Positions 1,404 to 61,316 of a stretch of 64,000 nt of DNA are shown piece by piece (position 1 is the stretch's first letter; the number at the start of each line of letters is the position of its first letter). The position numbers and the translations under genes are program-made. Origin of the DNA: a virus; IMG/VR virus record IMGVR_UViG_3300002030_000028. One strand, written 5' to 3'. The notes below the pieces were generated by a model. It worked only from the letters and a program-made list of their open reading frames with translations, was not told the DNA's origin and made no database searches.

Positions 1404-1949
1404 ATGCCTAAAAAAGTACAAACACCAAGAGACGTTCTGGACGACCCAAAATATACCGAGGCCGCTCGGAACTTGATGGAAAATTCAGGAAAGCCCGGTC
1501 CAAAAGGCGGCAGGCCAACAGATTATCATCTGGTATTGACGCAAAGTCTTTGGGATCTGAGGGATGAAAATCCCGATAAGGTTTGGACACAAGCGGAGAT
1601 ATGCCGGTTTCTGGATATATCGGAAACCACATGCAGGTCATGGAAAAGAAAATATTCTGAATTTGCTGAAGTGGTCGATTCTCATCGTTTGGGCAATAAG
1701 GTCTTCTATGAAAAGGCGTTACGTCACAGCGCGGCAACCGGAAAAGGTAACAGTAGAAGCATTCAATTTGGTTTGATGAATTCCTACGAAGAGGACTATC
1801 GAAACCGTAATTCAGATGAGTCGATCGTTGATCAGAAGGTAAACACATCTGATGCACCGGATGTTTCTTTCCTGTCTCTCGACAGAAAGCGAAAAATGCT
1901 CGCTTTGATCAACTCCGGAGAGCCGCATGAACCTGCCGACGACGCATGA
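1404..1949 (+). CDS. terS: terminase small subunit (putative)
   Basis: 181 aa, directly upstream of terL and overlapping it by 23 nt. HTH-like segment QAEICRFLDISETTCRSWKRKY. Confidence 0.6.
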   Translation: MPKKVQTPRDVLDDPKYTEAARNLMENSGKPGPKGGRPTDYHLVLTQSLWDLRDENPDKVWTQAEICRFLDISETTCRSWKRKYSEFAEVVDSHRLGNKVFYEKALRHSAATGKGNSRSIQFGLMNSYEEDYRNRNSDESIVDQKVNTSDAPDVSFLSLDRKRKMLALINSGEPHEPADDA

Positions 1950-4431
1950 TGTAATCGAGTACGCGGAAAAGAACCCAGACCGGTTACAGTACATACTCGA
2001 AAAATCTCTGTGTCAGGAAAGCCTGATTGACTTCATACGTGTGTTTTGGAGTGAGGTTGAGCCATCGGTTGACCTCGCAACGAATTGGGCGCTCGAGGCT
2101 ATGGCGGAACATCTCGAGGCCGTTTCAAATGATGAGATAGATAATTTACTCATAAATGTCCCGCCGGGCATGATGAAAGCCGCCCCTTACTACCTCCCTG
2201 TTTTAACAACACACGGATGGAAGCAGCACGGTGATCTTGATGTAGGTGATTTTGTGTATGGGCCTGATGGTCGGCCTAAGTGCGTGCAAGCCAGAACTCC
2301 AGAGGTGATGGAGGCTTGCTATAGGGTCGAATTTAATGATGGTACAAGCGTTGATATTGGATCAGGGCATGAGTGGGTTGTCGAACGCGACATATCGGAC
2401 GCCACGACGAAGCATAAAAGGCGACGGATCTTGAAAACCGTCACAACGCTTGATTTGAAAGCTGGCGAGCGGGGGGACAGGATACCAACCGCTGCGCCAA
2501 TTCATATGCCACCGTCAAAACAATACATAGACCCGTATCTTCTAGGGGCGTGGCTTGGCGATGGCTCAAGTCGTGGCGGGACTATCTTTGCCGCAGAAGA
2601 CGATGCTGAAACAATTTTGCCCTATGGTGAGGTATCTAAGCGACTGCCTGCTGATGGGCTTCGCAGAAAAAAACCATTCTTAAAAATAAAAGTGCTGGGG
2701 CTTGCCAAATCTTTGCGGGTCATGGGGCTTATTGAGAACAAGCACATACCGTATGAATACCTTCATGCATCTATTGATCAGCGGATTGCTCTTTTGCAGG
2801 GGCTTATGGACACGGACGGGCACTGTGACAAAGGTGGGCGATGCACATTTACAAACAAAGAAAAACGCCTCGCTGATGGCGTCAAGTGGATCGCGGAGTC
2901 GCTAGGAATGGTCGCGACCATAAAAAGCCGATTCACTGAATTGAATGGAAAAACATATGGTCCTCATTACAGCGTTGGATTTAGGCCTTGGGATGGACTG
3001 CAAGTCTTTCGGATGAAAAGAAAGCAAGACCGAATTATTCCAGTTAAGCAGTCACGTTATAGATCAAGATATGTTAAATCTGTTTCTCCCATAGGAAAAA
3101 AACGCGTTAGGTGCATTCAGGTCGAAGGCGGTATCTATCTGATTGATCGCCATATGTGCCCTACTCACAACAGTCTTATGTGCGGGACTTTTTGGCAGGC
3201 TTGGGAGTGGGGTCCGAGGGGCAGGCCGGATCTTCAATATATTACGACCTCTTATGCCGCCGATCTCGCTAAACGCAATCACATGAAGACAAGAAGCCTC
3301 ATCGAAACTGATAAGTTTATGGAGTTTTATGGCTATCTTGTAAGTAAAAACCCAAAGAAAAAAGACAATGAAACTGAATACTGGCTGGCTGCTAACGGTA
3401 TGTCGTTCGCCACCGGAACGTTGGGGAAGCTTACGGGGTATCGCGCCGACCGCATCATCGTTGATGACCCTCACTCAGTCGACGGGGCTGAGAGTGAGCT
3501 TGATCGAGAGAGGACCGTTCGGTGGTTTACCGAAACTCTTTCAACGCGCTTCAACAACGCTAAAACGATCAAGCGCTTGGTGATTATGCAGCGTATTCAT
3601 GAGGGTGATGTTAGCGGCCATATTCTTGAAAACATGAAGGGTCGATATGAGCATTTGATGCTTCCGATGCGGTATGAGCCTGATCGTCGCTGCCATACCG
3701 TCATTGGTTTCAAAGACCCTCGTAAGGAAGATGGGGAGCTTTTGTTCCCTGAGCGTTTTCCTGAAAAAGAACAGACGGAAATCGAAGAAGATATGATGTC
3801 TCAGGGCGGTGAGTATTCGGTTGCGGGTCAAATGCAGCAAAGGCCGGCACCTCGCGGTGGTGGAATGTTCAAGGTCGACAAATTGAACTATTGCGAAATG
3901 GCTCCATCAGGGGGGAAGTTCGCAAGAGGCTGGGATTTTGCAGGTTCGGTCAAAAAGAAAAGTCCATACACGGCGGGCGTTAAGGGGAAGCTTGTTAAAG
4001 GCAACCTGTATATAACTGACGTGGTTAGGGTTCGGCAGAAGATTTATGAAGCCGAGGACACGATTGTTACCACATGCAAGGACGACACAAGATCCGTCCG
4101 GCAGTCACTTCCCCAAGACCCCGGACAAGCTGGTTTGTCTCAAGTGAATAATTTGGCGGGCCGATTGATAGGTTTAGATTTTACTTTCTCGCCCGAATCC
4201 GGGGCCAAAGAGGATCGCGCTATTCCGTTTGCCAGCTATGTGAATGCCGGCAAGGTTTACCTCGTTAAGGGCGATTGGAATAAGGCTTTCGTGAGTGAGC
4301 TGAAAACTTTCCCGCGCGGTACTTACAAAGATCAGGTCGACGCTGCGTCTCGTATGTTCACGGAGGTTCAGCGTATGCCGAAGCGGGCATCTTCAGGGGC
4401 TAAAGGTAAGAATTTCCCGGCTGAGGAATAA
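1927..4431 (+). CDS. terL: terminase large subunit, intein-containing precursor (834 aa; 503-aa exteins)
   Basis: Walker A is split: INVPPGMMK | intein | SLMCGTFWQAWEW. Walker B-like RIIVDDPHS, and a C-terminal nuclease-like region (WDFAGS, QDPGQAG). Confidence 0.9.
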   Translation: MNLPTTHDVIEYAEKNPDRLQYILEKSLCQESLIDFIRVFWSEVEPSVDLATNWALEAMAEHLEAVSNDEIDNLLINVPPGMMKAAPYYLPVLTTHGWKQHGDLDVGDFVYGPDGRPKCVQARTPEVMEACYRVEFNDGTSVDIGSGHEWVVERDISDATTKHKRRRILKTVTTLDLKAGERGDRIPTAAPIHMPPSKQYIDPYLLGAWLGDGSSRGGTIFAAEDDAETILPYGEVSKRLPADGLRRKKPFLKIKVLGLAKSLRVMGLIENKHIPYEYLHASIDQRIALLQGLMDTDGHCDKGGRCTFTNKEKRLADGVKWIAESLGMVATIKSRFTELNGKTYGPHYSVGFRPWDGLQVFRMKRKQDRIIPVKQSRYRSRYVKSVSPIGKKRVRCIQVEGGIYLIDRHMCPTHNSLMCGTFWQAWEWGPRGRPDLQYITTSYAADLAKRNHMKTRSLIETDKFMEFYGYLVSKNPKKKDNETEYWLAANGMSFATGTLGKLTGYRADRIIVDDPHSVDGAESELDRERTVRWFTETLSTRFNNAKTIKRLVIMQRIHEGDVSGHILENMKGRYEHLMLPMRYEPDRRCHTVIGFKDPRKEDGELLFPERFPEKEQTEIEEDMMSQGGEYSVAGQMQQRPAPRGGGMFKVDKLNYCEMAPSGGKFARGWDFAGSVKKKSPYTAGVKGKLVKGNLYITDVVRVRQKIYEAEDTIVTTCKDDTRSVRQSLPQDPGQAGLSQVNNLAGRLIGLDFTFSPESGAKEDRAIPFASYVNAGKVYLVKGDWNKAFVSELKTFPRGTYKDQVDAASRMFTEVQRMPKRASSGAKGKNFPAEE
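2179..3171 (+). mobile_element. Intein (331 aa) with LAGLIDADG homing endonuclease, class 3 (WCT) signature
   Basis: Starts at Ala (AAPYYLPVL) and ends THN followed by Ser+1. LAGLIDADG motifs LLGAWLGDGS and LLQGLMDTDGH. Block B GSGHEW (Trp at B12), block F VRCIQVE (Cys where Asp is usual), block G T-H-N. Confidence 0.85.
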
Positions 4432-7573: not shown

Positions 7574-7652
7574 TGCGCGAGAGTTTGAGCGATATTTATC
7601 ACCGATGGGACGAGATTTTGGAATTTCTCCAAGAAGAATGAAAGGAAATATC

Positions 7653-8501
7653 ATGGGATTGACGATAACGAATGAAAACGGGAAACGGGTTAGCTTCAAA
7701 ATGTTCACGTTTCCGGGTGGCGAGCGGCATGTACAGATAAAGAATTTTGAGAAGTCGGATCTGTACAAAGTCCGCGCGGCCCTCAATTCTTCAGATGAGA
7801 TAATGGATCTTCTTCTGGCTTGCGATGCCCTTCAGGAGTTAAGCGGTGGGTGCCGTATAGCGCTCCTGATACCCTATATGCCGTATGCGCGTCAGGATCG
7901 CGTATGTGCGCCCGGTCAGCCTTTCTCCATGAGGGTCATGGCTGATATTCTGCATACAATTCGCAATGTCGTTTCGATCACGACTTACGATATTCATAGT
8001 GATGCGGGATGCGATCTCGTCAATGCCAATAATATTCCGGCCTGCGATTTGATTATGGCCAGTCATGAGATTTCAAGCCTAATCCGTGAGAAAGATACGG
8101 TTATCGTTTGCCCGGATGCTGGCGCCGTTAAGAGGGTTGATGAACTCGCGGACTTATTCGGTAAGGCGCGTGATGTTGTTTACTGCCAAAAGGTCAGAGA
8201 TCCCGAAACTGGATTCATAAGCGAGATCACCGTCGGTGCGGAAACGCTCGAGGGCAAGACGGCTTTCATAGCTGACGATATATGCGACGGCGGCAGAACG
8301 TTCACCATGATCGCGCGCGCGCTCAGGGAGCTATCTGTCGAGCGTGTGGTGCTTTACGTTACGCACGGTATCTTCAGTAAAGGCATTGAGGCCGTCCTGC
8401 GCGACACTGAGACGGACCAACTTCTCATCGACAAGATATTCACCACCGACACGATAACGAACCATGTTCACCCGAACCTTGAAGTAATCAAATTAAAATA
8501 G
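7653..8501 (+). CDS. ribose-phosphate pyrophosphokinase family enzyme (Prs-like; candidate ADPR pyrophosphokinase Adps of NARP1)
   Basis: LLIPYMPYARQDR, TYDIHSD and the PRPP-loop FIADDICDGGRTF. Trimmed to the ATG at 7653, 4 nt after AAAGGAAA. Adjacent to the Nampt-like gene. Confidence 0.85.
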   Translation: MGLTITNENGKRVSFKMFTFPGGERHVQIKNFEKSDLYKVRAALNSSDEIMDLLLACDALQELSGGCRIALLIPYMPYARQDRVCAPGQPFSMRVMADILHTIRNVVSITTYDIHSDAGCDLVNANNIPACDLIMASHEISSLIREKDTVIVCPDAGAVKRVDELADLFGKARDVVYCQKVRDPETGFISEITVGAETLEGKTAFIADDICDGGRTFTMIARALRELSVERVVLYVTHGIFSKGIEAVLRDTETDQLLIDKIFTTDTITNHVHPNLEVIKLK

Positions 8502-8525
8502 CGAAAATTGAAAAGGAAAACAGCT

Positions 8526-10025
8526 ATGCGCTTAAACCCACTGACCGCGATCGACTTCTATAAGGCCGATCACCGCCGACAATACCCTGAAGGGACGGAG
8601 TACGTTTATTCAAATTTCACCCCGCGCTCGTCAAAGCACGCGCCAGTGCTCGATGATTTTGACGACCGCGTGGTTTTCTTTGGCCTTCAGGGTTTCATCA
8701 AAAGCTTTCTGATTGATGCTTGGAATGAAAATTTCTTCAATCGCCCGATAGAGCAGGTTCTGTACGACTATCAGGTCCGGATGGATAAATCGCTTGGCGT
8801 CGGAGTGATATCGGTTGAGCACATCGAGGCGCTCCACCGTCTCGGTGCGCTGCCCATTCACATCAAGGCCCTACCCGAGGGGTCTCGGGTCAATATGCGG
8901 GTTCCGATGTTCACGATCGTAAACACGCTGCCGGAATTCTTCTGGTTGACGAATTATCTCGAGACCTCGATGAGCGCGGGTATTTGGAAATCATGCACCA
9001 CCGCCACGATAGCATTTGAATACCGTCGGCTGCTTACGCATTTCTACAAAGAGACCGGCGCGGATCTTCGCGATATCGCGGTCAACGTCCATGACTTCAG
9101 TTTTCGCGGTATGAGCGGAATACATGACGCTGCTCAATCGGGAGCTGGTCATCTGTTGAGCTTTGTCGGAACCGATACCGTTCAGGCAATTGATTATGTC
9201 GATGAATATTACTTCGGTGCCGAGAGTGGGCCGGCGCCGATCGGCCTGTCTGTGCCCGCGACAGAGCATAGCGTGATGTGCATGGGCACGAAGGGGGATG
9301 AGGTCGGAACGTTTAGGCGCCTAATCACCGAGACCTACCCCACGGGGATTGTCTCGATCGTGTCCGATACATGGGATTTCTGGCAGGTCATCACGGAATA
9401 TTCTGTGTTGCTGAAGGATGAGATATTAGCCAGAGAACCCAATAACCTCGGACTGGCCAAGGTGGTATTCAGACCAGACAGCGGTGATCCGGTCAAAATA
9501 CTATGCGGTGACCCCGCAGCGCCTCTGGGTTCTCCGGCCCGTAAAGGGGCTGTGGAATGTCTCTGGGACATTTTCGGCGGCACTCACACGCCTGCTGGCT
9601 ATATGCAGCTACATGAGCGCGTGGGCCTCATCTATGGGGATTCTATAACGCTTCAACGCGCGAAGGACATTATGGAACGATTGAAGCTGAAGGGCTTCGC
9701 GGCAAATAACGTGGTGTTCGGGGTCGGGAGTTACACGTACCAATACGTGACCCGCGATAGCTTTGGGTTCGCGATGAAAGCCACTTGGGGTCAGGTCGAC
9801 GGTGAAGGCCGGGATATATTCAAAGACCCGATTACGGATGATGGATTGAAGAAATCCGCCAAAGGTCTGTTGAGGGTTGAGGAGACAGATCAGGGCTTTG
9901 TGCTTCATGATCAACAAACCGCCGATCAGGAACGCGAAGGCGCCATGAGGTCGGTGTTCCATGAGGGACGGTTGATTGTTGAGGATACGTTTCAGCAAAT
10001 CCGTCACCGCCTTATGGGCTTTTAG
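8526..10025 (+). CDS. nicotinamide phosphoribosyltransferase family enzyme (NadV/Nampt-like; candidate Namat of NARP1)
   Basis: N-terminus NPLTAIDFYKADHRRQYPEGTEYVYSNFTPRS plus FRGMSG, PATEHSVM, RPDSGDP and IYGDSIT, all typical of the Nampt family. ATG at 8526 follows AAAAGGAAAA. Confidence 0.9.
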   Translation: MRLNPLTAIDFYKADHRRQYPEGTEYVYSNFTPRSSKHAPVLDDFDDRVVFFGLQGFIKSFLIDAWNENFFNRPIEQVLYDYQVRMDKSLGVGVISVEHIEALHRLGALPIHIKALPEGSRVNMRVPMFTIVNTLPEFFWLTNYLETSMSAGIWKSCTTATIAFEYRRLLTHFYKETGADLRDIAVNVHDFSFRGMSGIHDAAQSGAGHLLSFVGTDTVQAIDYVDEYYFGAESGPAPIGLSVPATEHSVMCMGTKGDEVGTFRRLITETYPTGIVSIVSDTWDFWQVITEYSVLLKDEILAREPNNLGLAKVVFRPDSGDPVKILCGDPAAPLGSPARKGAVECLWDIFGGTHTPAGYMQLHERVGLIYGDSITLQRAKDIMERLKLKGFAANNVVFGVGSYTYQYVTRDSFGFAMKATWGQVDGEGRDIFKDPITDDGLKKSAKGLLRVEETDQGFVLHDQQTADQEREGAMRSVFHEGRLIVEDTFQQIRHRLMGF

Positions 10026-15148: not shown

Positions 15149-16666
15149 ATGACCCATAAGGGTGAAAACGAGGAGTTGATGTTTATGGCCAAGGGTAGCG
15201 CAAAAAGCTCAAGTACAATTCAGAAGGCTATTCTGAGCAGCCGGGGCTCATCGGGCTCTTCAAATCTTGGCGGCATTAAGAGCCGCTCGACCAGTATCAC
15301 CAAGCCCGGCGGTACGTCGGCGGTACGGCATTACGCTGGTTTCATCGCCACGCGTGAGCGAAACCCCAAGCTTCAACGCCACAAACGCTATGAAGAGTTT
15401 GGCGAGATGCTTCTCAATCAGCCCGTGGTGGCAGCGAGCGTTCGGTTATTTCTTCAAATCGTTAAAGGCATCGAGTGGAACGTTGTGCCGATCGAGGGTG
15501 ATGCGGACTCGAAACGATACGCTGAAGATCTTGAGGAGGTGATTGATAATCTCGAGAGCGGCTGGCCTCAAATTGTTCAACGTTTGTCAGCTTTCGTATA
15601 TTGGGGTTTTAGCATAAGCGAGTGGACAGCGAAGCAGCTCGAGAGCGGGATTGTGGGCTTCAGCGATATCGAGCCCCGTTCTCAACATACCATTCACCGT
15701 TGGGAAATTCAGGATACGGGGAAGATTACCGCCGTTACGCAGCTAAATCCCAACACCGGGGAAGAGCTATTGCTTGAGCGCCGGCGTCTCATATACGCGG
15801 TCGACAACAGCCTGAATGATGACCCGGAGGGGCTTGGCCTGTTTAGGCAGCTGTATTCGGCATACCGGCGTATTGAGAATTACAAGGTCATCGAGGAGAT
15901 TGGTTTTGATACCGACCTGCGCGGGGTGCCGATCGTCAAAGCGCCCCTCGAGGAGCTCAATCAAATGGTTGAGGAGGAAATCATAACGCCTGAGCGCCGT
16001 GAGGAAATCCTATCCGTGTATGAGAACTTCCTGAAAAACCATCAGCGCAAGAAGTCTCAAGGCATGATGATCGATAGTGAGACCTATCTTGATAACGATC
16101 GTAATCCTAGCAACATTCAGAAGTTTGAGATTGAGCTTCTGCGCGGCGATAGCTCAGGCATCATGACGGATTTGCAGAACGCCATTAACCGCGAGCGCAA
16201 CAACATAGCGATGATTGCGAACACGGGATTTCTGCTTCTGGGTGAAGACGGCGCGGGCTCTCTGGCCCTAAGTGAAACGAAGATGGAAACGATATTCATG
16301 TTCGTGAGCTCAACGCTTCAGGATCTGGCGTTCATTCTGAAGCGCGATATGTTCAGATCAGTGGCAAAGCTGAACGGCTGGAATGAGGCTTCGCTGCCGG
16401 ATCTCGATTACGAAAAACCGACAGTTCAGGATATCATCAAAATCACGGAGGCGCTGCGTAACACCTCGACGGCCTTTGGTCCGCTGCCCTCAACGTCTCA
16501 AACCATCAACGAAATCTTCTCAATCATGGGTCTTGAGCCTATACCGGAAGAGGAGTTTGATGCTCAGGACGACGCCCTATTGCCGGGCTTTGATGCTGGC
16601 GGCACTGGGGATCAGCTCGATATGTTCAACGAACCAAAGGAGGAGCCTGAAGATGGCGACGATTGA
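15149..16666 (+). CDS. portal protein (putative)
   Basis: 505 aa, first large gene of the morphogenesis block, acidic C-terminus. Start is uncertain (15149, 15179 or 15185). Assigned by size and position plus general resemblance, no diagnostic motif. Confidence 0.6.
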   Translation: MTHKGENEELMFMAKGSAKSSSTIQKAILSSRGSSGSSNLGGIKSRSTSITKPGGTSAVRHYAGFIATRERNPKLQRHKRYEEFGEMLLNQPVVAASVRLFLQIVKGIEWNVVPIEGDADSKRYAEDLEEVIDNLESGWPQIVQRLSAFVYWGFSISEWTAKQLESGIVGFSDIEPRSQHTIHRWEIQDTGKITAVTQLNPNTGEELLLERRRLIYAVDNSLNDDPEGLGLFRQLYSAYRRIENYKVIEEIGFDTDLRGVPIVKAPLEELNQMVEEEIITPERREEILSVYENFLKNHQRKKSQGMMIDSETYLDNDRNPSNIQKFEIELLRGDSSGIMTDLQNAINRERNNIAMIANTGFLLLGEDGAGSLALSETKMETIFMFVSSTLQDLAFILKRDMFRSVAKLNGWNEASLPDLDYEKPTVQDIIKITEALRNTSTAFGPLPSTSQTINEIFSIMGLEPIPEEEFDAQDDALLPGFDAGGTGDQLDMFNEPKEEPEDGDD

Positions 16667-23912: not shown

Positions 23913-24335
23913 TTGCTTGTGGGTGTTACTTCGGTCGAATGGGATACAAGAACAATATTCTTCGATGGCAACATTGATGTTCCGGTAACTCGTCGTGAGT
24001 TGCGGGAGATCGAGGCCAGTCAGGATGGTATTGTTTTTGACGAAATCATAAGTGTGACCGGAAACACCCTCATCGGAGCAGGCCGGAACGCTCTCAACGT
24101 CACACTCATAAACGGTTACGAATGGGTGTTTAACGGGGTTGGAGATAGAGAATCCTTTAATGGAAACTTTATCGGTATCGTTCGCCCTATACCGGGCATC
24201 TTCTTTCAGAGAGAGCTATCGCTGGCGTTTGCCGCGACCACGGCGCCGCTCAGTGATGAGCAGGACCGTAGCCTCGAGCTCGCGCGCGATCACGCAAGGG
24301 CCGCTAATATGCAGACGAAGCCTAATCCTGATTGA
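23913..24335 (+). CDS. hypothetical protein (140 aa)
   Basis: ORF track entry with a TTG start. Convergent with the minus-strand methylase. Confidence 0.45.
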   Translation: MLVGVTSVEWDTRTIFFDGNIDVPVTRRELREIEASQDGIVFDEIISVTGNTLIGAGRNALNVTLINGYEWVFNGVGDRESFNGNFIGIVRPIPGIFFQRELSLAFAATTAPLSDEQDRSLELARDHARAANMQTKPNPD

Positions 24336-25572
24336 CGGTTCGCTCGGCGGTGATCTGATCGAACGTCTTATCGGTGCCGTTCAGGATAGCCTTCTGGCCC
24401 GTATAATCCTGCCAGCGCTTAACGATCACGTCGATATAGTTCGGTGAGAGCTCAATCATAAATCCACGCTTGCCTAAATCATGACAGGCCAGAAGCGTTG
24501 ACCCTGAGCCCGTGAACATGTCGAGGATGTTGTTGCAGTTTTCCCCGTATGTCTCGAGGCACCACACCGCAAGCGCAACAGGCTTTTGGGTTGGATGTAC
24601 CCGTTTATTGCTGCGCTCTGACGCGCGGAGCATGCCATTCCACATATGTTTAAACTGACGAACAGCGGTCTTCTGATTTGTCCAAGCAAGCTCGCAATCT
24701 GCAAAATTATTTTTGCCATTCTCTTTGTCCCATACAATCCAGCATGGGGAGTTTGGTAATTCGTTCGCGTAATAATTTCCGCCCCATATGATTTGAAGCC
24801 TTGGTGCTATCTTCTCGATGAGCCTTATGGATCTGACGGCTGTATCGATACTGTCGTCACCAATAACAGGAGCATAATTTGTGGCCTTTGCTAGCTTGCC
24901 TGTCCCTATAGTTCCCTTTTTCACTTTACCGACCGGCGCATCACCGCCGACCTTACCGCCACCGTTCACGATAGATACACCATAGGGCGGGTCCGTATAT
25001 ACGCAGTCCACAGCGGCGCCATCCATGAGCGTGTTGACGGTATCCTCGCTTGTTCCGTCGCCACATATGACGCGGTGAGGGCCGCATATCCACAGATCAC
25101 CCTCTCGGCTGATAGCGGCATCCTGATATTCAGGGGTCGCGGGCTCCTTTTTCTCAGCCGGGTTCGTTGATTTCAGGACTTCACTGAGAAAGCTTTCATC
25201 GAAGCCCACCATATCCATATCAATATCGGTCTCCATGAGGTCCGAAATCTCGCTTGCGAGAAGGTCTTCATCCCACCCGGCGTTAAGCGCCACCTGATTG
25301 TCTGCGAGGATGTAAGCGCGCTTGGCGTCCTCGGCCCAATCTTTGGCGATAATCACCGGGACTTTATCAAGCCCCATCTTGAGCGCGGCTTTCTGACGGC
25401 CATGCCCAGCTATAATCTCATCGTTCTCATCAACCAGAATAGGCGTGGTCCAGCCGTACTTGTCTATGAGGGCGATGATCTGTTCGACTTGTTTGTCGCT
25501 GTGCGTGCGCGCATTGCGGGGGTTTGGCTTCAGCTTATTGGGGTCGCGGCGGTAAATCTTTGAGGCGGCCAT
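24322..25572 (-). CDS. ParB-like nuclease domain fused to a beta-class (DPPY) DNA methyltransferase
   Basis: N-terminus LKPNPRNARTHSDKQVEQI...GHGR (ParB/Srx fold). Motif IV VYTDPPYG followed by C-terminal motif I ILDMFTGSGSTL, the circular order of CcrM-type N6A/N4C methylases. Confidence 0.85.
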   Translation of the reverse strand: MAASKIYRRDPNKLKPNPRNARTHSDKQVEQIIALIDKYGWTTPILVDENDEIIAGHGRQKAALKMGLDKVPVIIAKDWAEDAKRAYILADNQVALNAGWDEDLLASEISDLMETDIDMDMVGFDESFLSEVLKSTNPAEKKEPATPEYQDAAISREGDLWICGPHRVICGDGTSEDTVNTLMDGAAVDCVYTDPPYGVSIVNGGGKVGGDAPVGKVKKGTIGTGKLAKATNYAPVIGDDSIDTAVRSIRLIEKIAPRLQIIWGGNYYANELPNSPCWIVWDKENGKNNFADCELAWTNQKTAVRQFKHMWNGMLRASERSNKRVHPTQKPVALAVWCLETYGENCNNILDMFTGSGSTLLACHDLGKRGFMIELSPNYIDVIVKRWQDYTGQKAILNGTDKTFDQITAERTVNQD

Positions 25573-54041: not shown

Positions 54042-54230
54042 TTATTTTTTTGTTATTTTTGTTAACGTAAGGCATCCTGCGAAAGTCCTAAGAATGCGTT
54101 CAAATTCTTGATGGCATTCGTCATCTTGATGAGGATGAATAAGGTCATAATAATCTTCGATATGATTTTCGATATCCTGTATAAATCTGTAATAATCATG
54201 GGAATCAAATTTTAGAGTTAAAGTCATCAT
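54042..54230 (-). CDS. hypothetical protein (62 aa)
   Basis: ORF track entry. 4-nt overlap with the primase gene. Confidence 0.45.
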   Translation of the reverse strand: MMTLTLKFDSHDYYRFIQDIENHIEDYYDLIHPHQDDECHQEFERILRTFAGCLTLTKITKK

Positions 54231-55909
54231 TTTTCTGTCCTCCGTCTTCGACGCTGTTCAAAAATAGCGTCATGAAGGGCTTTAGGTTCATCTGAGGGTG
54301 GTTTAAGGTGATAAACAGATCTCACAACCGAATGCCACTGTGACGAGCCTGAATCTATGCTGCCGGAATAAGGGTAACTCTCAAGCATATCAGCGGCGAT
54401 ATTGTTGAACTTGACCAATAGCGTATCTATTACCACTGATCTGTTGATATCCATCCCGTCTTGGTAAAGTTGAAACATGGCTTCAAAAATGGAGTGGCAT
54501 TCCGATGACCAATGAGCGGTGGCTAAGTCCTCGGCTATCTCGTCAATGAGGTCCGGATTATCGATACATGTCGCTAATATGCCCAGCCCCCTGTGGGAAG
54601 CGATATCCCCTGATGCAATTGACTTGCTGTTATTCTTCTGGCCCCGGCGATAGTGCTCTCGGGTCCATTGAAAGAAAGCTTCGCGATAGTGCTTCTGAGT
54701 TTCGCGGTCTTTTATCAAAGACAGGTGTTCATTCAGCCGAGTTTTGAACGCTGTCCGGCGCTCGGGGGTGTCGAGGGCGTCAACTTCCCGTTCAAGTTCC
54801 CATGTCTTGCGTGGCAACGAGGTGGGGTTTTTGACAATATCAGCAAGCCCGCGCGAGCCTTTTTGTCTTAATACGTCATCAGGGTCTTGCCCGGCTGGTA
54901 TCTGGGCAAATAGCACCGTTCGGCCTTGTTCAACCTCGGGGAGAACCTTTTTTATCAGCCTCAAGGCCGCGCGACGGCCCGCTGCATCGCCATCAAGGCA
55001 TATTATGGGCTCCGGTCCCCATCGCCATATCTCGCGCATATGGGCTTCTGTAACGCTGGTTCCGAGAGGCGCGACCGCTATTGGAAGACCTGCTCGAGCG
55101 AAAGCGATAACATCAAGATACCCTTCGGAGAGTATGAGGCCCTGTGCATCGCGCTTTACCGTAAGTCCTTTTTTGGCAGTATCGATGCCGTACAGCGTGT
55201 TTGATTTGTGAAATACCGGGGAGTCCGGTCCATTAAGATATTTTGGTTTTTGGTCCTGATCGAGAGCTCGGGCACCGAATGAAACAACGCGGCCTTGCGT
55301 ATCACGTATCGGAAAGGTCAGACGGTTTCTATAAAAGCCGAATTGCCCGCGCGAGCTCTGTTTTGTCAGACCGGCCTCGATAAGGATATCGTTATTGTAT
55401 TTTCCAGATAGAAATCTTGGTATCGCGCTCCAGTCTTCTGGCGCGAAACCGATACCCCATTCCTTTATGGTTTGAGCGTCTATCCCTCTTGACTGAACAT
55501 ATGATTTTGCAAGTTCGCTATTGTTGAGCTCGGCAGAAAATAACGCTTGAGCGTCATTCATCGCGGCGTATATGAGCTTCCGGCGGTCATCTTTCTGACG
55601 CTCTTCCGGGGTATATTTTGGCAGCTCAACGCCGGCCATATCCGCAAGCCGTTCAATCGCTTGCGGGAAGGTGCAATTTTCAAACTCCATAAATAGCGTG
55701 AATACGTCACCACCTATTCCTGAAGAGAAGCATTTAAATATTTGCTTAGTGTCATTGACGTAAAAGCTTGGCGTCTTCTCTTGGGTGAATGGTGACAGGC
55801 CCGCGAGCTCACGGCCCGAGCGTTTAAGCTTGACCCGCTTGCTCGCGATATCACTGACCTTTATTCGTTTGCGAATCTCATCTTTGAAACTGTCCGAATA
55901 GCGAGGCAT
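54227..55909 (-). CDS. dnaG: DnaG-type primase (TOPRIM) with a degenerate zinc-binding domain
   Basis: SPFTQEKTPSFYVN...FKCFSSGIGGDVF aligns with CPFHxEKTPSF...CFGCG, but three of the four ligands are replaced. TOPRIM motifs LSEGYLDV and CLDGDAAG. Confidence 0.8.
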   Translation of the reverse strand: MPRYSDSFKDEIRKRIKVSDIASKRVKLKRSGRELAGLSPFTQEKTPSFYVNDTKQIFKCFSSGIGGDVFTLFMEFENCTFPQAIERLADMAGVELPKYTPEERQKDDRRKLIYAAMNDAQALFSAELNNSELAKSYVQSRGIDAQTIKEWGIGFAPEDWSAIPRFLSGKYNNDILIEAGLTKQSSRGQFGFYRNRLTFPIRDTQGRVVSFGARALDQDQKPKYLNGPDSPVFHKSNTLYGIDTAKKGLTVKRDAQGLILSEGYLDVIAFARAGLPIAVAPLGTSVTEAHMREIWRWGPEPIICLDGDAAGRRAALRLIKKVLPEVEQGRTVLFAQIPAGQDPDDVLRQKGSRGLADIVKNPTSLPRKTWELEREVDALDTPERRTAFKTRLNEHLSLIKDRETQKHYREAFFQWTREHYRRGQKNNSKSIASGDIASHRGLGILATCIDNPDLIDEIAEDLATAHWSSECHSIFEAMFQLYQDGMDINRSVVIDTLLVKFNNIAADMLESYPYSGSIDSGSSQWHSVVRSVYHLKPPSDEPKALHDAIFEQRRRRRTEK

Positions 55910-59867: not shown

Positions 59868-61316
59868 TTAGAATATTGATGTGCCGTGGAGGTCATGCGG
59901 GTCGCAGTCGCCGACATAACCGGTCAGTGTGTCACACCAAAACGTATCAGATCCCACAGGTCCAATCCTTTGTTTTCCGATGATCAGTTGAAACTGATGG
60001 CGTGTTCTTTCGAGCTCGACAGTCCATTGAATATGTTTTTCGTTGGATTTGTCAGCTGGTTCAGAGCGTTCGACATAGTAGTGATGCCGGTACGCGAACA
60101 TTACGATATCGGCGTCTTGCTCAATCGAGCCGGAGTCTCTGAGGTCGGATAATTGAGGGCGTTTGTCGTCTCTGTTCTCAACTTGTCTCGATAGTTGAGA
60201 GAGAGCTATAACGGGTATGTCGAGCTTTTTAGCGATACGCTTCAGGCCCGCCGATATGTTGGTTATAGCGGCCTGCTTATTGCCTCGGTCTTCAGGTGGC
60301 GGGTTAATGATTTGAAGATAGTCAACCACGATCATATCGAGATAACCGTGCATGCGGATAAGGTTGAGTGCGCGGATCTCGATATCGCGAATTGTGATGC
60401 CAGCATCGTCATCAATACTGATGTTCTCACCGATATCGGCGGCATGGGTGCCCATAGCGTCCAGATGCTCTTCAGAGATATCGTATGATCGCATGTTCAG
60501 TGATGAGTATCGTTTACCGAAACGCTTGTGCGAATTGGTTGTCATAAAGCGCCCGAGAACCTTATCGGTATCCATCTCGAGGCTGAAAAATGCCACATGT
60601 GCGCGTTTTCCGGGAGCCTTCAGAGAGGGGCTTGAGGCCACGCCTTCGATGATATTCAGGGCTTTCATGGTCTTACCCATACTTGGGCGCCCGGCAAGGA
60701 TGATCAGGTCGCTGGGAAAGAACCCGCCGCCAAGTCGCCTGTCCAGAACCCCGCTGCCACTTGATAGAAACGGTTTATCATCGGCATTTTTTCCCGCCCG
60801 TATGCGCTCCACGTACTCTCTGATGCCCGGAATGATCTTCACCGGGGGTTTGACGGTACTGCCCATCATGACGGCTGATAGCGTCTCTGATGCTTTCACC
60901 GCTATATCGCCAGCTTTTTGGCCGACCTCTGGCTTAACGCATGCGGCTTCGATCGATTGCGACATTCTGATCAGCTCTCGCCGGTTTTGAAGGTCGATCA
61001 GGATTTCAGCATATTCAGGTATCTCTGGCTCGAGCGCCGCGTTGCTAACCATCTTCGCGAGGTATTGTTCACCGCCAATCTTTTTCAAAAGGTCTTCGCG
61101 GTGAAAGAACTCAAGCAGTGTATTTGGGTCCGCTGAGCTTCCCTCAGAGTTTAATTTTGTGAGTGCGTTCCATATGATTTGATGTTGTTCACCAAAAAAA
61201 GAGGCGTCGGACAGTTTGTCCGACACCATTATGATTTCGCGGTTGTCAAAGATCAGGGCGCCCAAAAGTGACTGCTCAACGCCCAGATTACAGGGTAGTG
61301 TATGTATGTCTTGCAT
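59868..61316 (-). CDS. dnaB: replicative DNA helicase DnaB
   Basis: LPCNLGVEQSLLGALIFDN N-terminus, Walker A GRPSMGKT, Walker B MIVVDYLQ, ALSQLSRQVENR, DSGSIEQDADIV. Confidence 0.9.
   Translation of the reverse strand: MQDIHTLPCNLGVEQSLLGALIFDNREIIMVSDKLSDASFFGEQHQIIWNALTKLNSEGSSADPNTLLEFFHREDLLKKIGGEQYLAKMVSNAALEPEIPEYAEILIDLQNRRELIRMSQSIEAACVKPEVGQKAGDIAVKASETLSAVMMGSTVKPPVKIIPGIREYVERIRAGKNADDKPFLSSGSGVLDRRLGGGFFPSDLIILAGRPSMGKTMKALNIIEGVASSPSLKAPGKRAHVAFFSLEMDTDKVLGRFMTTNSHKRFGKRYSSLNMRSYDISEEHLDAMGTHAADIGENISIDDDAGITIRDIEIRALNLIRMHGYLDMIVVDYLQIINPPPEDRGNKQAAITNISAGLKRIAKKLDIPVIALSQLSRQVENRDDKRPQLSDLRDSGSIEQDADIVMFAYRHHYYVERSEPADKSNEKHIQWTVELERTRHQFQLIIGKQRIGPVGSDTFWCDTLTGYVGDCDPHDLHGTSIF

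Follow-up and report, generated by a model that had tools for sequence, protein, structure and literature searches.

The stretch of viral DNA analysed here (IMG/VR record IMGVR_UViG_3300002030_000028; 64,000 nucleotides, hereafter the window) contains on its forward strand a single, uninterrupted reading frame of 834 codons for the large terminase subunit (TerL), directly downstream of the small subunit gene. The frame is longer than a terminase requires by a predicted intein of 331 residues, and the initial annotation, which had placed an insert of this size at 2179-3171, was confirmed to the base by the ORF list, the codons at either junction and the intein-less homologues described below. 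The features of the locus are as follows.

1404..1949, + strand: small terminase subunit gene (phrog_309, 9.6e-10), overlapping the start of terL by 23 nt
1927..4431, + strand: terL precursor ORF from the ORF list, 834 aa = 503-aa terminase + 331-aa intein (Pfam Terminase_6C; phrog_38 at 1e-78)
1927..2178, + strand: N-extein, aa 1-84, with PPGMMK at nt 2161-2178 and Lys84 as the -1 residue (alignments A1 and A2)
2179..3171, + strand: predicted intein, 331 aa, Ala1 to Asn331, precursor residues 85-415 (from its gap-free absence in intein-less homologues, PDB sequence matches and the structural model)
2179..2217, + strand: splicing block A (AAPYYLPVLTTHG), aligned to MchDnaB1 residues 3-15; Ala at position 1, hence no N-terminal nucleophile
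2341..2382, + strand: splicing block B, with His64 (B:10) at nt 2368-2370 and Trp66 (B:12) at nt 2374-2376, aligned to His65/Trp67 of MchDnaB1 and Msm DnaB-1
2491..3048, + strand: predicted LAGLIDADG homing endonuclease domain, approximately intein residues 105-290 (Pfam LAGLIDADG_3 1.4e-9 and Hom_end 2.7e-6, above gathering scores)
2539-2565, + strand: LAGLIDADG motif 1, LLGAWLGDG, intein residues 121-129, including Asp128
2791-2820, + strand: LAGLIDADG motif 2, LLQGLMDTDG, intein residues 205-214, including Asp213
3103..3150, + strand: splicing block F, with Cys312 (F:4), the predicted branch-point nucleophile, at nt 3112-3114; VRCIQVE aligned to VRCVEVD of MchDnaB1 (Cys124)
3151..3171, + strand: splicing block G, with Thr329 (G:5) at nt 3163-3165, His330, and Asn331 at nt 3169-3171; CPTHN aligned to VPTHN of MchDnaB1 (Thr143, Asn145)
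3172..4431, + strand: C-extein, beginning at Ser+1 (nt 3172-3174, AGT), which is the Walker A Ser, and ending in an RNase H-like nuclease domain
3451-3474, + strand: Walker B-like RIIVDDPH inside the C-extein

The host protein is a large terminase composed of an N-terminal ASCE ATPase and a C-terminal RNase H-like nuclease. The Pfam Terminase_6C match spans precursor residues 667-807, and Foldseek relates the AlphaFold model of the spliced extein to the terminases of PhiV-1, T4 (gp17), D6E, HK97 and Sf6. It is the only large subunit seen when the large ORFs of the window were checked, and none of these ORFs is a further terL able to relieve the phage of the need for splicing. An identical precursor (P0001) is encoded on a 65.7-kb JGI contig. 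The phage itself is uncultured and siphovirus-like, with a genome of about 65 kb of which the 64 kb at hand looks otherwise complete; it is seen on metagenome contigs only, so that its viability is assumed. A megablast search of terL against 50,697 phage genomes returned zero matches, and none of the cultured phages is closely related to this one; the nearest cultured relatives of the extein, at 41% identity, infect Shewanella, Rhizobium and Erythrobacter.

The boundaries of the insert can be fixed independently of any intein motif because intein-less homologues align straight through the junction. In P0002 (77% identical), P0003, P0004, P0005 and P0008-P0011 the sequence NVPPGMMK↓SLMCGTFW (the arrow marks the junction) is colinear and has no gap, and the same continuity is seen at the DNA level in two alleles that lack the intein, L001 and L005. 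Nucleotide 2179 opens codon 85 (GCC, Ala) and nucleotide 3171 closes codon 415 (AAC, Asn), followed by AGT (Ser). Moving the boundaries by one residue in either direction was rejected, as it breaks the invariant K84-S85 pair; in alignments A1 and A2, N77, P79, P80, G81, K84 and S85 (spliced numbering) are all invariant. The initial annotation had also claimed that the insert interrupts Walker A and that splicing religates it to PPGMMKS. Alignment to the homologues left the boundaries where they had been drawn and restored K84-S85, and the model places the junction in a P-loop.

PPGMMKS is a deviant Walker A with no Gly before the Lys, and a search of PDB sequences with a profile built from the intein-less exteins found no match. 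The P-loop assignment is therefore drawn from the AlphaFold model, Foldseek and an alignment to terminases carrying PPRHGK[ST]. In the model of the spliced protein, a strand (73-77) is followed by the PPGMMK loop and by a helix starting from K84-S85, and in more distant terminases whose homologous position is occupied by related inteins the loop reads PPRHGK↓S/T, which aligns to PPGMMK↓S. As judged from the model and the alignments, the insertion falls between Walker A Lys84 and Ser85 within a strand-loop-helix P-loop.

By its sequence, the insert bears the complete class 3 signature of Ala1, His B:10, Trp B:12, Cys F:4, Thr G:5, a terminal His-Asn and Ser+1. His64, Trp66, Cys312, Thr329 and Asn331 align one-to-one with His65, Trp67, Cys124, Thr143 and Asn145 of the MchDnaB1 intein, of which Cys124, His65 and Thr143 form the triad, and equally with the Msm DnaB-1 intein, bearing out residue for residue the Trp-Cys-Thr (WCT) triplet that had been read from the motifs GSGHEW, VRCIQVE and PTHN (intein residues 61-66, 310-316 and 328-331). 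The Ala start, the two LAGLIDADG motifs and the His-Asn followed by Ser+1 were likewise found where they had been reported. A comparison with class 3 examples, proposed in the initial annotation, was run: the best matches of the intein among solved structures are the class 3 inteins MchDnaB1 (6rix/6riy) and Msm DnaB-1 (6bs8), at E = 1.5e-13 to 3e-12, while PI-SceI reaches 1e-7 and the class 1 gp41-1 intein only E ~1 in the same PDB sequences. Altogether 134 proteins match the intein in the database (best E = 2e-59), and its nearest cultured-phage relatives all carry WCT. Across 108 sequences, comprising the window intein and 107 full-length relatives, Trp B:12 is present in every one, with His B:10 in 106, Thr G:5 in 104, Cys F:4 in 103, the penultimate His in 103, the terminal Asn in 101, Ser or Thr at +1 in 99 and Ala1 in 96. 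Minor departures are found in block A, which lies somewhat off the family consensus (AAPYYLPV vs ALALDTPI) with a Tyr at position 5 shared with MchDnaB1, and at B:7, which is Gly here and Asp in most relatives; in the MP-Be DnaB intein B:7 is dispensable. The AlphaFold model of the intein (pLDDT 94) shows a HINT domain joined to a LAGLIDADG domain, and its Foldseek matches are PI-SceI (TMq 0.78), TliVMA, PI-PfuI, I-DmoI, MchDnaB1 and Msm DnaB-1.

Several other identities were considered for the insert and rejected. A class 1 intein is incompatible with Ala as residue 1, and a class 2 intein of the KlbA type with Ser+1, Cys F:4, His G:6 and a host protein that is not a KlbA orthologue. The presence of a +1 nucleophile and a complete block G speaks against a bacterial intein-like domain. 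A free-standing homing endonuclease gene or an intron was discarded on account of the continuous frame and the HINT blocks on both sides of the endonuclease.

Two rival readings concern splicing. The insert could be a decayed, non-splicing element like the pseudogene Arsp-FB24 Arth_1007, making the contig that of a defective phage; the assumed viability of an uncultured phage leaves room for this, and class 3-like pseudo-inteins do exist. Yet neither His B:10 nor Cys F:4, the catalytic positions that the Arthrobacter pseudogene has lost, is missing here, the frame is intact across 2.5 kb, and the interrupted gene is the only terminase of an otherwise complete-looking 64-kb phage genome, so that we hold decay to be very unlikely. 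Least probable of all, in our estimation, is that the intein splices by another route, either as in class 2, with Ser+1 attacking the N-terminal junction directly, or by an unknown variant, and that Cys312 plays a purely structural role. Ala1 is indeed shared with the class 2 KlbA inteins, but the known members of class 2 are without exception KlbA orthologues and have Cys+1, Asp F:4 and Ser G:6, as opposed to the Ser+1, Cys F:4 and His G:6 found here; moreover, the homologues of the window intein are proven class 3 inteins, in which replacing Cys F:4 by Ala abolishes every reaction.

A class 3 intein in a terminase P-loop is already known: hundreds are catalogued in actinobacteriophage terminases, and both splicing and homing activity have been demonstrated. 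Class 3 was defined on a phage protein, and terminase large subunits were reported to have class 3 inteins, mostly in P-loops (Tori et al. 2010, PMC2807308). The closest systems are the mycobacteriophage TerL P-loop inteins TerL1-a and TerL1-b, for example in Dusk gp8, Baka gp6 and Minerva gp9, and the Baka intein has been shown both to splice and to cleave an intein-less TerL allele (Kelley et al. 2016, mBio, PMC5050341). Like the window intein, these elements combine a non-nucleophilic residue 1, H-x-W, Cys F:4, T-H-N and Ser/Thr+1 with a nested two-motif LAGLIDADG endonuclease, and interrupt a large terminase behind its Walker A Lys. The junctions read ARKNGK↓ALDVE...TPTHN↓T in Dusk and SRQNGK↓GDLGH...IPTHN↓S in Baka, and alignment of these two inteins to that of the window covers 98% of the latter at 34-36% identity (Baka, 36%). 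The hosts differ, in that the actinobacteriophage proteins are of the Terminase_1 type with a canonical GK[ST] P-loop, whereas the window TerL is of the phrog_38/Terminase_6C type with PPGMMKS. Class 3 inteins had been called a small minority in the initial annotation, which holds for inteins as a whole but not for phages, where they are common: they make up 287/784 of the actinobacteriophage inteins in one survey, and 496 records of cultured phages contain a match to at least 80% of the window intein.

Further comparisons come from inteins outside terminases. In MchDnaB1 and Msm DnaB-1, blocks A/B and F/G align with those of the window intein, the catalytic His, Trp, Cys, Thr and Asn are the same, Ser+1 and the P-loop insertion are shared, and the HINT part superimposes with Foldseek TM (target) scores of 0.81-0.84; unlike the window element, however, both are mini-inteins without an endonuclease and reside in a bacterial DnaB helicase. 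The class 3 prototype, MP-Be DnaB of mycobacteriophage Bethlehem, is of phage origin, also lacks an N-terminal nucleophile and combines WCT and Ser/Thr+1 with a LAGLIDADG domain. It interrupts the ATPase of a protein resembling a helicase, but it has Pro1 and Thr+1 in place of Ala1 and Ser+1 and a different host protein. For two-domain architecture, the best whole-model structural match is PI-SceI, the yeast VMA1 intein, with the endonuclease regions aligning (PI-SceI residues 301-384 with intein residues 188-267); it differs in being class 1 (Cys1, Cys+1), larger (454 aa) and from a eukaryotic host.

We conclude that nucleotides 2179-3171 very probably encode a bifunctional class 3 intein, consisting of a HINT domain with a nested LAGLIDADG homing endonuclease, which splits the sole TerL at Lys84/Ser85, splices through Cys312 and homes into intein-less terL. 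For the window intein, we infer splicing, the block F thioester and endonuclease activity by homology. The 834-aa precursor would fold as one chain; N-S acyl shift being impossible because residue 1 is Ala, the thiol of Cys312 would attack the carbonyl of Lys84, activated by His64 together with Trp66 and Thr329, to form a branched thioester. The N-extein would then be handed to the side chain of Ser+1, His330-assisted cyclisation of Asn331 would release the intein, and an O-to-N shift would create the Lys-Ser peptide bond, restoring PPGMMKS and with it a packaging-competent ATPase. Packaging in this phage must hinge on one protein-splicing event and, since the window has just one terL, an allele unable to splice would be lethal.

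The freed intein would further be expected to cut the intein-less terL of co-infecting relatives at a specific site, and repair of the break from the intein-bearing allele would copy the element in. The predicted homing target spans ...AATGTCCCGCCGGGCATGATGAAA↓AGTCTTATGTGCGGGAC..., and the reconstructed intein-less terL site reads GATAATTTACTCATAAATGTCCCGCCGGGCATGATGAAAAGTCTTATGTGCGGGACTTTTTGGCAGGCT. Alternatively, the class 3 intein splices but its endonuclease is inactive or finds no susceptible targets, leaving a fixed, vertically inherited passenger. This would fit with the composition of the intein, which is the same as that of the genome (GC3 = 0.45, the 24th percentile of same-size in-frame windows and thus not an outlier). 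It would also fit with the occurrence of the exact allele in one cluster only, on two contigs, and with a closest intein relative that is only 40% identical, no near-identical copy having been found in other terL alleles. On the other hand, neither motif has lost its catalytic Asp (D128, D213) or its Gly residues, Lys188 is in place, and the conservation of these positions across the family is at least 90% (alignment A3). The model of the endonuclease domain is a confident one, the relative in Baka is known to cut DNA, and natural intein-less alleles (L001 and L005) carry almost identical target DNA. We therefore regard a passenger as unlikely. Composition is uninformative on a recent arrival of the intein and provides no evidence of homing still under way.

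The window intein extends the range of terminase class 3 inteins to a different terminase family (the Terminase_6C/phrog_38 type with its deviant PPGMMKS Walker A) and to an uncultured siphovirus-like phage; the closest cultured relatives of its terminase come from phages of Proteobacteria. Annotation pipelines will give this terL the wrong size, and the intein itself is a candidate addition to the few class 3 inteins that protein engineering can use.

The more interesting lead lies outside the window, in a second family of non-WCT inteins that lack an N-terminal nucleophile and occupy the same site. In a 67%-identical TerL (P0007, locus L003) the very same codon is the insertion site of an unrelated intein (L003 3001-5583), which is non-WCT and nucleophile-less. 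Its family conserves Pro1, Cys F:4 (motif CRCLTV) and Ser/Thr+1, with Phe at B:12 and Val at G:5, and is closest by sequence to class 1 mini-inteins. BLASTP between the two inteins gave no meaningful similarity except the LAGLIDADG motif and one short stretch out of register; they were accordingly rejected as alleles of one another and are two independent elements. We tentatively suggest that two unrelated nucleophile-less intein lineages may be rivals for the K↓S site in this clade of terminases, in which case the site would offer a natural system for intein competition. On a smaller scale, the family of the window intein may have moved between two kinds of site, P-loops (GK↓S/T) and, in dCTP deaminase, the phosphate-binding motif RLEGK↓SS. 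In the published view, class 3 inteins have a single monophyletic origin; if the P0007 family also splices via its block F Cys, class 3-type chemistry would have arisen more than once.

The gene for the large terminase subunit (terL) carries, within its Walker A motif, a 331-aa insert whose interpretation as a class 3 intein is supported, subject to experiment. The insert begins at nt 2179 with codon 85 of the terL reading frame (GCC, Ala) and ends at nt 3171, the last base of codon 415 (AAC, Asn), followed by AGT for Ser. ORF and codon positions show that the initial annotation was base-accurate on this extent, on the motifs listed below and on the final His-Asn before Ser+1.

Features of the terL precursor and its insert
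1927..4431, plus strand: terL precursor ORF, one 834-aa reading frame
Intein residues 61-66: GSGHEW
Intein residues 121-129: LLGAWLGDG
Intein residues 205-214: LLQGLMDTDG
Intein residues 310-316: VRCIQVE
Intein residues 328-331: PTHN

A database search with the 503-aa protein obtained by conceptual splicing returned thousands of homologues. The nearest full-length ones, each about 500 aa (P0002, 77% identical, with P0003, P0004, P0005 and P0008-P0011), align without gaps over the junction NVPPGMMK/SLMCGTFW (slash, junction), and the DNA of two intein-less alleles, in loci L001 and L005, runs unbroken through the same sequence. Lys84 and Ser85 are invariant in an alignment of 30 sequences, and the boundaries are unambiguous because a one-residue shift either way would destroy this pair. 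The sequence that religation was proposed to restore in Walker A thus occurs in intein-less homologues at both protein and DNA level, and the boundaries do not lie elsewhere.

The identification of the host as terL, split in Walker A, is likewise upheld. The spliced protein belongs to PHROG 38 'terminase large subunit' (E = 1.2e-78) and to Pfam Terminase_6C, and a small terminase subunit gene (1404-1949) adjoins terL upstream, overlapping its start by 23 nt. A profile of the terminase family found no match among PDB sequences; the AlphaFold model of the spliced protein (pLDDT 87) retrieved with Foldseek the large terminases of PhiV-1, T4 (gp17), D6E, HK97 and Sf6 (E = 1e-19 to 1e-9). In this model, beta-strand 73-77 (LLINV) leads through the loop PPGMMK into a helix starting at K84-S85, which is the canonical P-loop geometry. 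In more distant terminases, related inteins occupy the corresponding position, PPRHGK/S (P0121) and PPRHGK/T (P0218); once spliced, these exteins align with PPGMMK/S of the window. The modelled geometry and this alignment identify the insertion site as Walker A, here in a deviant form that is specific to the clade and has no Gly before Lys. In this PPGMMKS motif (nt 2161-2178 and 3172-3174) Met replaces the usual Gly; N77, P79, P80 and G81 are, like K84 and S85, invariant in 30 homologues, and more distant relatives have PPRHGK[ST].

The best solved-structure sequence matches of the insert are three DnaB mini-intein entries.

Best solved-structure matches
6rix (MchDnaB1): E = 1.5e-13
6riy (MchDnaB1): E = 7.2e-13
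6bs8, deposited as 'The class 3 DnaB intein from Mycobacterium smegmatis': E = 3.1e-12

The alignments span splicing blocks A/B and F/G and place His64, Trp66, Cys312, Thr329 and Asn331 opposite His65, Trp67, Cys124, Thr143 and Asn145 of MchDnaB1, which include the published Cys-His-Thr catalytic triad plus the Trp of the class 3 (WCT) signature. The class 1 gp41-1 intein reaches only E of about 1. This residue-by-residue correspondence argues, at sequence level, for the class 3 assignment with Ala1 that had been made. The two LAGLIDADG motifs previously described, LLGAWLGDG and LLQGLMDTDG, are accompanied by Pfam LAGLIDADG_3 and Hom_end, both over gathering scores, and the endonuclease domain of PI-SceI, a class 1 intein, aligns with the central part of the insert. 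A confident AlphaFold model built from 36 sequences (pLDDT 94, pTM 0.91) matches PI-SceI along its full length (TMq 0.78) as well as the endonuclease-bearing inteins TliVMA and PI-PfuI; its HINT part matches the class 3 mini-inteins (TM target 0.81-0.84).

The intein database search yielded 134 proteins, of which 107 spanning the whole element were aligned with the window sequence.

Conservation among the 108 aligned inteins
Position 1, Ala: 96/108
B:10, His: 106/108
B:12, Trp: 108/108
F:4, Cys: 103/108
G:5, Thr: 104/108
G:6, His: 103/108
G:7, Asn: 101/108
+1, Ser or Thr: 99/108
-1, Lys: 97/108

Given these counts, the class 3 signature characterises the family as a whole and is no coincidence of one sequence. 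A class 2-like splicing route is unlikely, since class 2 is made up of KlbA orthologues, which have Cys+1, Asp F:4 and Ser G:6. That the element is decayed and no longer splices, like the Arthrobacter Arth_1007 pseudogene, is also unlikely: all catalytic residues are retained, the reading frame is unbroken and the insert lies in an essential gene. In the family alignment, Asp128 and Asp213 of the LAGLIDADG motifs, the glycines of these motifs and Lys188 show either no variation or at least 90% conservation, which argues for past selection on the endonuclease. It is possible that the intein splices while its endonuclease is dead or without targets; there is no compositional sign of recent invasion, and the database search found no near-identical intein copies.

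Class 3 chemistry has been shown experimentally in MP-Be DnaB, Msm DnaB-1 and Mle DnaB; in the latter two an Ala substitution at Cys F:4 abolishes every reaction, and one at Trp B:12 prevents splicing. By homology, Cys312 would attack the Lys84 carbonyl to form a branched thioester, the N-extein would be transferred to Ser+1, cyclisation of Asn331 would release the intein, and an O-to-N shift would rebuild PPGMMKS. The free intein is then expected to cut alleles that lack it; those in L001 and L005 are examples, and their DNA near the insertion site is nearly identical to the window's. A check of the window's large ORFs turned up no other terL, and because 331 residues split the P-loop of this one copy, packaging should depend on splicing. 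Cys327 (G:3, nt 3157-3159), two residues before Thr G:5, is Ile or Val in almost all relatives, and another Cys lies at +4 of the C-extein (nt 3181-3183). The idea that one or the other might form a disulfide with catalytic Cys312 is pure speculation; such a bond to the catalytic Cys has been reported in Msm DnaB-1, a redox-sensitive intein.

Class 3 was defined on a mycobacteriophage protein (Tori et al., 2010). Mycobacteriophage TerL inteins have been mapped to sites that include two in the P-loop, one of these between the invariant Lys and Thr; TerL inteins splice, and for that of Baka, TerL1-b, cleavage of an intein-less allele was shown (Kelley et al., 2016). A 2025 survey assigned 287 of 784 actinobacteriophage inteins to class 3, mostly in terminases and Cas4. 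The window intein matches 844 cultured-phage records; in 496 of these the match covers 80% or more of the intein.

Closest cultured-phage matches to the window intein
Gaia gp2: 38% identity, in TerL
Baka gp6 / Minerva gp9: 36%, SRQNGK/GDLGH ... GGHLW ... RCIQV ... IPTHN/S
Dusk gp8: 34.5%, ARKNGK/ALDVE ... HHLW ... VCIQI ... TPTHN/T
Rhodobacter phage RcTiptonus gp25: 36%, GGGK/RLAVD ... VTHN/T

With these matches and the published P-loop inteins, a class 3 LAGLIDADG intein after the TerL Walker A Lys is an established arrangement. Only the host is new: the phage is uncultured and about 65 kb in size, and its terminase is of another family, whose P-loop is deviant. The closest cultured relatives of its TerL, at 41% identity, are in phages of Shewanella, Rhizobium and Erythrobacter, and the phage collection contained no nucleotide-level match to the window terL.

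Most database relatives of the intein (P0123-P0216 and others, 33-39% identity) reside in dCTP deaminase, not terminases. Their insertion site, RLEGK/SSLGRLG, is a phosphate-binding motif resembling the P-loop GK/S, which suggests that the family switched host proteins via short nucleotide-binding motifs.

A terL 67% identical to the window extein (P0007; L003 3001-5583, ena:ERZ23487491 scaffold_241) carries a 356-aa LAGLIDADG intein at the exact same K/S codon, homologous to window nt 2178/2179, yet unrelated in sequence to the window intein. Its family has 23 members in P-loops of TerL, Micromonospora RuvB and DnaB, and conserves Pro1, APDHPF in block B (Phe at B:12), Ser/Thr+1, Val/Ala-His-Asn in block G (Val/Ala at G:5) and CRCLTV in block F, with Cys at F:2 and F:4, the second opposite Asp F:4 of NpuDnaB. 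It lacks an N-terminal nucleophile and has the block F Cys, and departs from WCT at Trp and Thr; by sequence, the solved structures nearest to it are class 1 mini-inteins. The family may represent a second lineage, of independent origin, whose chemistry resembles that of class 3. A limited literature search found no description of this family.

By gene content the phage is siphovirus-like, with a size of about 65 kb.

Genome context
42-731, 1404-1949, 15149-16666, 24322-25572 (minus), 54227-55909 (minus), 59868-61316 (minus): phage genes, listed jointly
7605-8501, plus strand: ribose-phosphate pyrophosphokinase-like gene (Pribosyltran_N/Pribosyltran)
8508-10025, plus strand: nicotinamide/nicotinate phosphoribosyltransferase gene (NAPRTase, NAMPT_N)

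The window encodes a RecT-like annealing protein, TerS, a Mu-type portal, a Mu F-like protein, tail tube, tape measure and GpJ-like tip proteins, a ParB-N6/N4 methylase fusion, DnaG primase and an intein-free DnaB helicase of 481 aa. The adjoining genes at 7605-8501 and 8508-10025 together resemble an NAD+ salvage module carried by the phage.
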